This document shows positions 12,682 to 12,999 of a stretch of DNA of 64,000 nucleotides, piece after piece (position 1 is the first letter of the stretch; every line of letters begins with the position of its first letter). Source of the DNA: Candidatus Woesearchaeota archaeon (lineage in GTDB: Archaea; Nanobdellota; Nanobdellia; Woesearchaeales; GW2011-AR4); assembly GCA_016181305.1 (NCBI GenBank), contig JACOZN010000002.1, positions 1 through 64,000 on the forward strand, written 5' to 3'. The notes below the pieces were generated by a model, which did no database searches, was not told the DNA's origin, and saw only the letters and a program-made list of their open reading frames with translations. A program made the position numbers and the translations under genes.

Positions 12682-12999
12682 ATGTTATTTCCGCAAATAA
12701 AAAAGAGGCTGAAAAGCTTTATTCTTGAGGAAGAAGGCAAGATTTCAAAACATTCTGTTCTAAAGATTGGCTCTGTGCTTTTGGCGTCAGGTTTAGGCGC
12801 AATCGGGCATGTTTCTGCTGGGTGCGGTTGCAGTTGTGGTTGCGGTTGCAGTTGTGGTTGCGGATGCAGTTGCGGGTGTGCGTGTGCTGGGTGTGCCAGC
12901 GGAGGTGCGGCGGGCGGTGCGGCAGGTGCCTCTGGTACAAGTGGTACTACAAGTTGTGGTAGTTGTGGTGGCTGTGGTGGAGGCGGCGGCACATGTTAA
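12682..12999 (+). CDS. Cys/Gly-rich RiPP precursor-like peptide (46-aa leader plus 59-aa core with 16 Cys)
   Basis: Leader KKRLKSFILEEEGKISKH followed by a hydrophobic stretch ending HVSA; core (GCGCSC)x3-GCAC-AGC...CGSCGGCGGGGGTC; own promoter; repeat variation is all synonymous in this frame. Confidence 0.8.
   Translation: MLFPQIKKRLKSFILEEEGKISKHSVLKIGSVLLASGLGAIGHVSAGCGCSCGCGCSCGCGCSCGCACAGCASGGAAGGAAGASGTSGTTSCGSCGGCGGGGGTC
12820..12873 (+). repeat. 18-bp coding tandem repeat x3 (GCGCSC)
   Basis: gggtgcggttgcagttgt / ggttgcggttgcagttgt / ggttgcggatgcagttgc. Confidence 0.95.

Follow-up and report, generated by a model that had tools for sequence, protein, structure and literature searches.

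The 105-amino-acid protein encoded at positions 12,682 to 12,999 of the window (i.e. the whole 64,000-nucleotide stretch of DNA analysed here) reads, on the evidence of its sequence, as a bona fide precursor or effector within the archaeal branch of His-Xaa-Ser (Hxs) systems, with the His/Ser-rich core replaced by cysteine and small residues. We consider it rather probable that this Hxs-type product is exported and that its cysteines are modified by a radical SAM (rSAM)/SPASM enzyme resembling that of the ACGX system. Work on the Hxs family has so far been confined to its role as a four-gene anti-phage system in Proteobacteria. The precursor gene comprises the following features:

12650..12657, + strand: TATA-like box recognised from its sequence, with a spacing common to two homologous loci (L079 and L081)
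12682..12999, + strand: precursor open reading frame, 105 aa (46-aa leader plus 59-aa core)
12682..12753, + strand: recognition motif PxIKKxxxSFxxxEEGKISK, precursor residues 1-24 (NF038309 HxsA3 profile, alignment and dN/dS)
12754..12819, + strand: hydrophobic stretch ending in VSA, precursor residues 25-46 (Kyte-Doolittle), a putative signal-peptide h-region or membrane anchor
12820..12999, + strand: Cys-only core (59 aa, 16 Cys, holding three 18-bp repeats) and stop codon

The core (residues 47-105) had been described as composed solely of Gly, Cys, Ser, Ala and Thr, which is the case: it contains 16 cysteines and 11 consecutive Xaa-Cys pairs, arranged as (GCGCSC)x3-GCAC-AGC, a Gly/Ala/Ser/Thr spacer, and a second cysteine patch with TC at its end. 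Charged residues, histidines and HxS motifs each number zero. The three 18-bp repeats (12820-12873) differ at three positions, all of which are third-codon and synonymous in the precursor frame, as originally noted. The TATA box placed 24 nt upstream by the original prediction was likewise recovered (TTATAAAT at 12650-12657, its end 24 nt 5' of the ATG), and the homologous genes of L079 and L081 carry a TATA-like box about 23 nt before the start; given this position, a leaderless mRNA would be expected. Other frames across the GC-rich repeat are also open, and a leader matching a curated family model is found only in the + frame. The frame claimed to be the real gene is upheld because family match, conservation and purifying selection agree, and we regard this open reading frame as far beyond chance.

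The initially proposed likeness of the leader to those of some His-Xaa-Ser repeat peptides is substantiated by the NF038309 (HxsA3) profile, positions 2-36 of which align to precursor residues 3-37 (E 3.8e-8). The whole protein scores 33 bits against a curated cut-off of 65, with the repeat half of the profile unmatched; other Cys-only peptides likewise match just the leader part. The precursor has no C-terminal His-Xaa-Ser repeats of the kind that define HxsA-type proteins, and it matches no Pfam family. Kyte-Doolittle means over 11 residues reach 1.9 across residues 25-41, and the hydrophobic stretch is common to all family members.

About 90 proteins share this leader (52 representative relatives, more than 60 loci); they come from Woesearchaeota/Nanoarchaeota, some Methanosarcinales and Desulfobacteraceae metagenome-assembled genomes. 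The leader search suggested by the original prediction did uncover canonical HxS-repeat cores in many loci. Also, the finding named in advance as fatal to the idea (leader homologues not near rSAM genes) is absent: in at least 20 loci, a leader homologue is the immediate neighbour of a radical-SAM gene for HxsB. The cores are His-rich (36), mixed Cys and His (31), Cys-only (16) or fused (9), and one conserved leader is evidently paired with His/Ser-rich, mixed or pure Cys cores. At least 12 distinct Cys-only peptides, differing in sequence and alike in composition, are spread over several lineages. Compared with seven homologues, the leader has a dN/dS of 0.10-0.22 (with dS >1, near saturation). 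Distribution within the genus is patchy, the leader being found in 6 of 43 genomes.

Upstream of the precursor gene lie an Hxs cassette, an inserted gene pair and a gene remnant:

7802..8806, + strand: A24-type (prepilin-peptidase-like) membrane aspartyl peptidase (Arc_PepC 22.7 bits), first gene of the archaeal Hxs cassette
8842..9213, + strand: HxsD homologue (TIGR03976 44.5 bits, E 1.5e-11, marginally under the cut-off of 50), syntenic in many loci
9201..9431, + strand: second, HxsD-like protein (NF038315 46.6 bits, over the cut-off of 41)
9433..10677, + strand: pseudo-HxsB (TIGR03978 113 bits, under the cut-off of 370), radical-SAM Cys triad absent
10663..11468, - strand: candidate VapBC-like PIN and ribbon-helix-helix (RHH) pair, named by sequence reading, between pseudo-HxsB and the precursor
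11642..11728, + strand: remnant of an HxsB-like 3' end (tblastn, 59% identity over 29 aa to pseudo-HxsB residues 375-403)

The order A24 peptidase-HxsD-HxsD'-HxsB-peptide is conserved in at least 15 loci. Because the family profile yielded no FlaK-type match among PDB sequences, the A24 assignment is made via the Pfam matches of 15 syntenic homologues (Arc_PepC in all 15, Peptidase_A24 in nine). No variation is seen at D21 or in the G72-D73 motif; both Asp motifs are present in the window copy, from which 14 residues immediately N-terminal to the GD motif are missing. As to a possible role as A24 substrate, the leader has a charged segment and then a hydrophobic one, and no canonical cleavage motif was assignable.

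When the window HxsB was aligned with 18 canonical archaeal HxsB proteins, all full-length canonical sequences were seen to retain CNxxCxYC and to possess 12-18 cysteines; the window protein lacks both this segment and the GGEP motif, and three cysteines are left. The HxsB of two other genomes (G005 and G036) is in the same state, with the triad deleted and 3-5 cysteines across the three, so that most auxiliary-cluster cysteines are gone from HxsB in this genus. Pseudo-HxsB is nonetheless a full-length open frame free of stops (39-55% identity among the three genomes), and HxsD, the HxsD-like protein and pseudo-HxsB are retained as intact open reading frames in three genomes of the genus. A complex prediction for pseudo-HxsB and the leader scored 0.01 and carries no weight either way. 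A search of the 78%-complete genome for HxsC (TIGR03977) matched nothing but the rSAM/SPASM gene, whose 49 bits fall well under the cut-off of 268. PIN/RHH homologues adjoin related peptides at L025 as well, and at L092, a close relative, the part of the locus covered holds HxsB as fragments only. We read the locus as an Hxs cassette that has been rewired, with gluzincin-like peptidases, a binding protein and an rSAM/SPASM enzyme added; the other genes of the region are the following:

11828..12628, + strand: gluzincin-like HExxH protein, 266 aa, with a HETTH...EGLAVY motif, candidate leader/core peptidase
13103..14632, + strand: 509-aa protein, N-terminal signal-like segment containing RR, then a gluzincin-like HEITH domain; a second copy of the domain is degenerate
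14666..15826, + strand: membrane-anchored solute-binding protein (Peripla_BP_6, Pfam 76.7 bits)
15844..17544, + strand: intact radical SAM/SPASM enzyme (Radical_SAM 81 bits, SPASM 45.7 bits), candidate maturase of the Cys core
17588..18778, + strand: GT4 glycosyltransferase (Pfam), adjoining the rSAM/SPASM gene in relatives too
18783..20591, + strand: PQQ-type beta-propeller protein (PF01011 179.5 bits), downstream in relatives too

The rSAM/SPASM enzyme is the sole intact radical-SAM enzyme in the locus. Its best NCBIfam match is TIGR04340 of the ACGX system (190.2 bits, under the cut-off of 400), and among solved structures in the PDB it comes closest to three peptide maturases, PqqE, CteB and SkfB. 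A C-terminal tail domain of about 200 aa lies outside the TIGR04340 model; a fold search with this domain (model pLDDT 74.6) gave no recognisable match (best E 1.2), and no RRE (leader-binding domain) was detected on the enzyme. The logic of PQQ cofactor synthesis from a PqqA-like peptide was considered and rejected, the core being without Glu or Tyr and the scans made having found no pqq genes.

As expected of a locus for an rSAM/SPASM-matured RiPP, the window pairs a leader-core precursor with an rSAM/SPASM enzyme, and the pair is contiguous in L092 and L054: the gene order is peptide-SBP-rSAM/SPASM-GT4-propeller at L092/L094 (SBP, the solute-binding protein) and peptide-SBP-rSAM, with a methyltransferase partner, at L054. 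Orthologues of 72-93% identity are present in G005, G032, G035, G036 and L092. Within the genus, the leader peptide is found in four of the five genomes that have the orthologue and in 2 of the 38 that do not (Fisher p 6e-4, relatedness ignored). The neighbouring glycosyltransferase and beta-propeller are conserved in G036 and L092 at 80-89% and 70-77% identity, respectively. The peptide of G036 is about 18 kb away from the rSAM/SPASM gene, and G022 (87% complete) has a Cys-only peptide, with no rSAM/SPASM orthologue found. Elsewhere in the order, nine genomes have homologues of 32-45% identity, and the flanks covered there contain no Cys-only peptide. The link between this enzyme and the Cys core is not exclusive because these distant homologues sit near canonical Hxs loci (five of nine) or glycosyltransferase/membrane genes.

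The other neighbours also recur with Cys-only peptides. The solute-binding protein is found 3' of them in P0002, P0003, L054, L079/80 and L092/94 and near the one in P0001; it is beside 7 of 11 Cys-only contexts, compared with none of about 25 canonical Hxs loci examined. Homologues of the 266-aa protein flank Cys-only peptides in L079, L080 and L082-84, and one is near L057. Its AF2 model (pLDDT 80.5) has top Foldseek PDB matches that are nearly all gluzincins (M1, M9, M30, EryP), the best at E 2.5e-3. In L079 and L080, the gene immediately preceding the Cys-only peptide encodes a homologue of the 509-aa protein (44% identity); at L054 and L092/94, the peptides are flanked instead by a 390-aa protein of weak M23-type likeness. 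Tat export of the 509-aa protein was rejected and its RR motif is treated as a plain signal-like segment because a search of the genome, 78% complete, gave no TatC.

In the mechanism that we favour, HxsD, the HxsD-like protein and the dead HxsB would still bind and present the leader, and the intact rSAM/SPASM enzyme would act on the cysteines, most likely by forming thioether-type or other Cys-centred cross-links. Against cross-linking, the core offers no obvious acceptor side chains other than those of Gly, Ala, Ser and Thr. Leader removal might fall to the A24 peptidase, the HExxH peptidases or both, after which the product would leave the cell or be presented on its surface, in the form of a thiol-rich or cross-linked tail. 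Metal binding would be its most plausible job, or else a protective (antiviral) surface function as reported for bacterial HxsA; the uncharged core, at odds with the DNA-binding model for that protein, counts against an HxsA-like role. More tentatively, it is possible that DPANN archaea export poly-(Xaa-Cys) peptides as a phytochelatin counterpart that captures or detoxifies extracellular metals or in a multiply thioether-bridged form, with the ancestral, now dead rSAM protein serving as a leader-binding scaffold and the other rSAM/SPASM enzyme acting on the cysteines via a portable docking domain.

Alternatively, the product could be an unmodified thiol peptide, secreted or membrane-anchored, for which the leader is a mere export signal (Sec-type or A24-cleaved) and the (Xaa-Cys)n core an extracellular chelator of metallothionein or phytochelatin type in anoxic surroundings; a separate cell-surface operon would then be formed by the rSAM/SPASM-GT4-propeller genes. 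CxC runs amid Gly, Ser and Ala are typical of metal-thiolate peptides; fungal Cu-metallothioneins and (Glu-Cys)n peptides have a similar CxC-type composition. His-rich and Cys-rich cores, which alternate and mix in the family, both supply residues well known for binding metals, none of the usual Hxs enzymes was found in working form at this locus, and both the 18-kb distance in G036 and the company that rSAM/SPASM homologues keep elsewhere with glycosyltransferase and membrane genes fit such a separation. We nevertheless hold it to be unlikely. Purifying selection acts strongly on the motif before the hydrophobic stretch, and this motif is far longer than a signal-peptide n-region requires, which argues for recognition by dedicated proteins; HxsD, the HxsD-like protein and pseudo-HxsB stay intact in three genus genomes, the rSAM/SPASM enzyme and the leader co-occur within the genus, and no Pfam metallothionein family was matched.

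It is distinctly improbable that the matured peptide is chiefly an antiviral surface effector that is exported and blocks viral genome entry, with the Cys-only core as an alternative warhead varying in an arms race. Bacterial HXS (HxsA-D) is reportedly anti-phage, with HxsA exported and rSAM-matured (PMC13128918), and the archaeal cassette has HxsD, HxsB and a leader-bearing substrate in common with it; the patchy distribution in the genus, the hypervariable cores and the repeated insertion of toxin-antitoxin cassettes, as in defence islands, point the same way. However, the mechanism proposed for bacteria has basic HxS repeats bind DNA electrostatically and the window core is without charge, the archaeal substrate has no peptidoglycan-binding domain, and among the papers searched none describes a virus or defence assay of an archaeal Hxs variant. 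Finally, the signs of erosion in the locus (dead HxsB, an A24 peptidase that is missing 14 aa, the HxsB 3' remnant and insertions of toxin-antitoxin cassettes), which also count against the preferred reading, together with the fragmented HxsB at L092, might suggest a genus losing its Hxs cassette and a core that is a drifting, functionless low-complexity repeat, a very remote prospect given the intact reading frame, the wholly synonymous repeat differences, a leader dN/dS of about 0.1, the variety of Cys-only peptides of like composition across lineages and the stop-free pseudo-HxsB.

At this locus, loss of the His/Ser module accompanies loss of the HxsB active site, and this joint loss provides a natural experiment on which enzyme handles which part of the substrate. 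Should the Cys core be modified or bind metal, few ribosomal peptide products would match it in cysteine density, and its producers would be ultra-small symbiotic archaea, whose secondary chemistry is barely charted. Direct testing is feasible because the peptide is short enough for synthesis and the locus small enough for expression.

Among known systems, the HXS system of Pseudomonadota (HxsD-HxsB-HxsC-HxsA; TIGR03976-03979) has been reported to be anti-phage (Li et al., Nat Commun 2026; PMC13128918). Its HxsA undergoes rSAM-dependent maturation, N-terminal processing and export, and electrostatic DNA binding via the basic HxS repeats is the proposed mechanism (PMC13128918). NCBIfam holds further substrate models of HXS type, HxsA3 (NF038309) and HxsA4 (NF038313). 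The window resembles this system in a leader homologous to that of HxsA3, in a substrate with a hydrophobic export segment, and in the HxsD, HxsD-like and HxsB homologues upstream, in the order seen in many archaeal loci. It differs in an archaeal host, in a core with no His-Xaa-Ser repeats and no His at all, in a substrate without a peptidoglycan-binding domain, in an HxsB without the radical-SAM triad and, within the 78%-complete genome, in HxsC not having been found. Additionally, the window has an A24 peptidase (common to other archaeal loci), gluzincin-like peptidases, the binding protein and a different rSAM/SPASM enzyme.

The ACGX system is bioinformatically defined by an rSAM/SPASM enzyme (TIGR04340) and an ACGX-repeat peptide (TIGR04341), and our literature search gave no experimental paper on it. 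As in that system, a small peptide with Cys repeated among small residues lies beside an rSAM/SPASM enzyme for which TIGR04340 is the top-scoring curated family. A methyltransferase partner is present in the relative L054. Unlike the ACGX system, the window enzyme scores far under the cut-off and has its tail domain outside the model, and the peptide has an Hxs leader and an export segment. Membership in the ACGX-repeat peptides was rejected, TIGR04341 being unmatched across the whole genome at E <= 10.

With the maturases of sactipeptides and ranthipeptides (e.g. CteB and SkfB, which are among its closest solved relatives) and with enzymes of the QhpD type, the window enzyme shares an rSAM/SPASM architecture with the full auxiliary-cluster region; QhpD-type enzymes form Cys thioethers. 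A Cys-rich, leader-bearing precursor and nearby peptidase genes are further likenesses to sactipeptide and ranthipeptide loci. In contrast, the window enzyme has no detected RRE, the usual leader-binding domain of such maturases, and the sactipeptide and ranthipeptide cores known to us have few cysteines, far below the 16 in 59 residues, alternating, of the window core.

Metallothioneins, phytochelatins and synthetic (Glu-Cys)n peptides offer alternating Xaa-Cys and CxC amid Gly and Ser that are comparable to the window core, which is small, dense in CxC motifs and without aromatics; neither Pfam nor NCBIfam metallothionein families matched the window peptide. Unlike these peptides, the one in the window is encoded by a gene that also specifies an export segment and a long, conserved leader, and it is placed inside a radical-SAM maturation locus.

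The precursor is encoded on the forward strand of the window, directly behind a TATA-like box:

12650-12657, + strand, TATA-like box TTATAAAT, 24 nt upstream of the ATG
12682-12999, + strand, open reading frame of the Cys-only-core precursor, 105 aa

Core residues 47-105 are composed of G, C, S, A and T only, include 16 Cys, and run as (GCGCSC)x3-GCAC, AGC, a spacer of Gly, Ala, Ser and Thr, and another patch of Cys, with 11 consecutive Xaa-Cys pairs. Three 18-bp repeats (12820-12873) differ at three bases, each a synonymous third position in the peptide frame. The original prediction had described the core, the repeats and the box in these terms and had taken this frame to be the real gene, all of which is borne out, the last point by leader homology and a leader dN/dS of 0.10-0.22 against seven homologues (dS >1). 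Further open frames cross the core because its G+C content is high (62% vs 41% across the ~1.1-Mb genome of this DPANN archaeon); although they are open, homology and selection prove, at the level of sequence, that the + frame is the coding one. Homologous genes in two other loci (L079 and L081) are also preceded by a TATA-like box, ~23 nt off, and this similar spacing suggests that the gene has its own promoter and a leaderless mRNA.

The leader, earlier likened to those of His-Xaa-Ser (Hxs) peptides, indeed matches NCBIfam NF038309 (HxsA3, His-Xaa-Ser repeat protein) over peptide residues 3-37 (E 3.8e-8); the whole-protein score of 33 bits is under the cut-off of 65, as the model's repeat half finds no match. 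Its alignment consensus is M-x-P-K-I-K-K-x-I-x-S-F-L-L-x-E-E-G-K-I-S-K-Q-S, followed by ~20 hydrophobic residues. A word-indexed search returned three proteins with Cys/Gly-only cores and leaders 76-80% identical to the window's, an exhaustive phmmer search returned 52 representatives, and genome and metagenome scans for the leader added >60 further loci. The named leader-bearing records are in the majority Candidatus Woesearchaeota/Nanoarchaeota MAGs, together with a number of bins from Methanosarcinales and Desulfobacteraceae; one matching locus (L025) comes from a genome in the same genus as the window.

The same leader does carry HxS cores elsewhere, a point that the original prediction had marked for checking. 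Among 97 non-identical entries (including a few duplicates of one protein), 36 cores are His-rich, typically with a conserved ...SLSY..GGTATATH.HH... block and then HxS repeats, 31 combine the His module with Cys-rich patches, 16 are Cys-only (<=1 His), and nine are long fusions, chiefly to Hint (intein-like) domains. Runs of (Gly-Cys)n recur in mixed peptides (e.g. P0018, P0024, L124 and L126), and the window's peptide is the extreme of the family, with 100% G/C/S/A/T and the highest Cys count among short peptides. The core of locus L112 (326-), in which HxS repeats pass into (Cys-His-Ser-Ser)n repeats, may be intermediate between the His and Cys types; a homologue (39% identity) of the window's radical-SAM (rSAM)/SPASM enzyme lies 3 kb from this gene. 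In some members, the leader and a Cys- or His-rich core are fused to at least one Hint domain beginning with Cys (G036:C5:46401 [L006/L055], G006:C15 [L011/L056], L030, L031, L046, P0013 and P0014), some also having an N-terminal HxsD domain; the Hint domain could liberate the core in thioester form for subsequent ligation or cyclisation.

The gene order A24-type peptidase, HxsD, HxsD-like, HxsB and peptide is shared by at least 15 loci, which come from different families, often with further radical-SAM genes after the peptide, and the window holds the same cassette genes. The peptidase is assigned to A24 because members of its syntenic family match Pfam Arc_PepC (15/15) and Peptidase_A24 (9/15) and because one Asp and a GD motif are invariant in the alignment.

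7802-8806, A24-type peptidase, window copy, with 14 residues missing just before the catalytic GD motif

The missing residues are part of a transmembrane helix and are present in 14/14 aligned homologues; the window's enzyme may be impaired. All canonical full-length HxsB proteins examined have CNxxCxYC and 12-18 Cys. The HxsB homologues of the window and of two genomes of its genus, G005 (39% identity) and G036 (55%), have the triad segment deleted, have lost the GGEP SAM-binding motif and retain 3-5 Cys, and all three keep a full-length open frame. HxsC was not detectable in the window's genome (78% complete). In this genus, the substrate's His/Ser module and the active site of HxsB have thus been lost together, the three genomes being close kin and the joint loss a single evolutionary observation. 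In Escherichia coli, the sole mapped HXS modification (+8 Da) is within an HxS motif and requires HxsB, HxsC and HxsD (PMC13128918), so the joint losses and these data fit the idea that HxsB and HxsC would act for the His/Ser module.

The window also encodes an rSAM/SPASM enzyme that is intact and bears a C-terminal tail. Among curated families the enzyme scores best against the ACGX system (TIGR04340), with 190 bits under a cut-off of 400, and among solved structures PqqE, CteB and SkfB are nearest to it. Orthologues with 72-93% identity occur in G005, G032, G035, G036 and a metagenome contig (L092/L094), and among 43 genomes of the genus the leader peptide is present in 4/5 with the enzyme vs 2/38 without it. 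The contiguous order is peptide, binding protein, (inserted cassettes), rSAM/SPASM, GT4 and propeller in L092/L094, and peptide, binding protein and rSAM in L054. The enzyme may nevertheless be an accessory of archaeal Hxs loci in general and not a Cys-core specialist, because homologues with 32-45% identity, from nine further genomes of the order, adjoin canonical Hxs loci in 5/9 cases and because G022 has a Cys-only peptide and no orthologue was found in its 87%-complete genome. Such homologues also occur among glycosyltransferase and membrane genes, and the flanks retrieved from the nine genomes revealed no Cys-only peptide. The last ~150 residues are homologous to a domain fused to other enzymes too:

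window 17101-17541, tail domain of the rSAM/SPASM enzyme
L054 3085-3525, tail domain fused to a class-I methyltransferase
L076 4764-5204, tail domain fused to a DUF362 and ferredoxin protein

Its spread over unrelated enzymes of related loci suggests a portable substrate-docking domain; a model (pLDDT 74.6) found no match in a fold search. In the window's genus, substitutions have removed every one of the six or seven Cys conserved in other families, a loss that parallels that in the dead HxsB.

HExxH proteins that share a family with the window's 266-aa and 509-aa ones lie directly upstream of the Cys-only peptide in L079, L080 and L082-84, and one is close to it in L057. The 266-aa protein gave a confident model (pLDDT 80.5), whose top Foldseek matches in the PDB are weak (best E 2.5e-3, TM 0.4-0.5) and come almost entirely from gluzincin peptidases: M1 aminopeptidases, M9 collagenases, M30 and EryP, a leader peptidase of lanthipeptides. 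A ~390-aa protein weakly similar to M23 peptidase (E 1e-4), with no homologue found in the window's genome, is instead encoded directly upstream of the Cys-only peptide in L054 and L092.

13103-14632, 509-aa HExxH protein with an N-terminal, twin-arginine-signal-like S-R-R-T-V-L-L-K motif (a search of the 78%-complete genome yielded no TatC)
L054 4233-5402 and L092 8715-9902, ~390-aa conserved protein, 42% identity between both loci

A membrane-anchored Peripla_BP_6 binding protein lies downstream in 7 of the 11 Cys-only contexts whose flanks were long enough, and in 0/~25 canonical loci; the test of this contrast is not corrected for relatedness. The window further holds, ~7 kb downstream from the cluster, a T2SSE-type ATPase and T2SSF-type membrane protein (type IV pilus-like machinery; 27345-29610), whose neighbour is a large CarboxypepD_reg-domain surface protein (20969-23275).

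Toxin-antitoxin-like cassettes (PIN/RHH, HEPN/nucleotidyltransferase) are inserted between Hxs genes of several relatives:

window 10663-11785, toxin-antitoxin-like insertion
L092 1-4000 and 11420-13450, toxin-antitoxin-like insertions
L091 (G036) 8343-10000, toxin-antitoxin-like insertion

Every cassette comes with a short duplicated piece of the adjoining gene's end (three HxsB 3' and two rSAM 5' fragments in L092; one HxsB 3' remnant in the window), and Hxs loci look like a hot spot of repeated insertion in which the target is duplicated.

Taking in the observed leader homology, conserved cassette, dead HxsB, intact rSAM/SPASM enzyme co-occurring with leader peptides, and peptidase and binding-protein neighbours, we propose that the leader would be bound by HxsD, HxsD-like and pseudo-HxsB, the core cysteines modified by the rSAM/SPASM enzyme, and the leader removed by the A24 and/or HExxH peptidases, with the hydrophobic segment exporting or anchoring the product. 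The mixing of His-rich and Cys-rich cores in the family, together with an Xaa-Cys pattern that is phytochelatin-like, points to a possible metal-binding role. Bacterial precedent, the patchy distribution of the leader peptide (6/43 genomes of the genus), hypervariable cores and repeated toxin-antitoxin insertions point to a possible defence role, although the uncharged core of the window is at odds with the DNA-binding mode proposed for the bacterial form (PMC13128918).

Catalogues already include the Hxs family with its substrate models HxsA to HxsA4, and the bacterial form has been studied in one 2026 paper (PMC13128918); a literature search found no paper on an archaeal Hxs form, a Cys-only substrate or the ACGX system. 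The window's peptide differs from HxsA in being without the defining repeats and under the HxsA3 cut-off, and the window fails both ACGX models (enzyme and peptide); the peptide is therefore best described as a new variant upon the Hxs leader and cassette.
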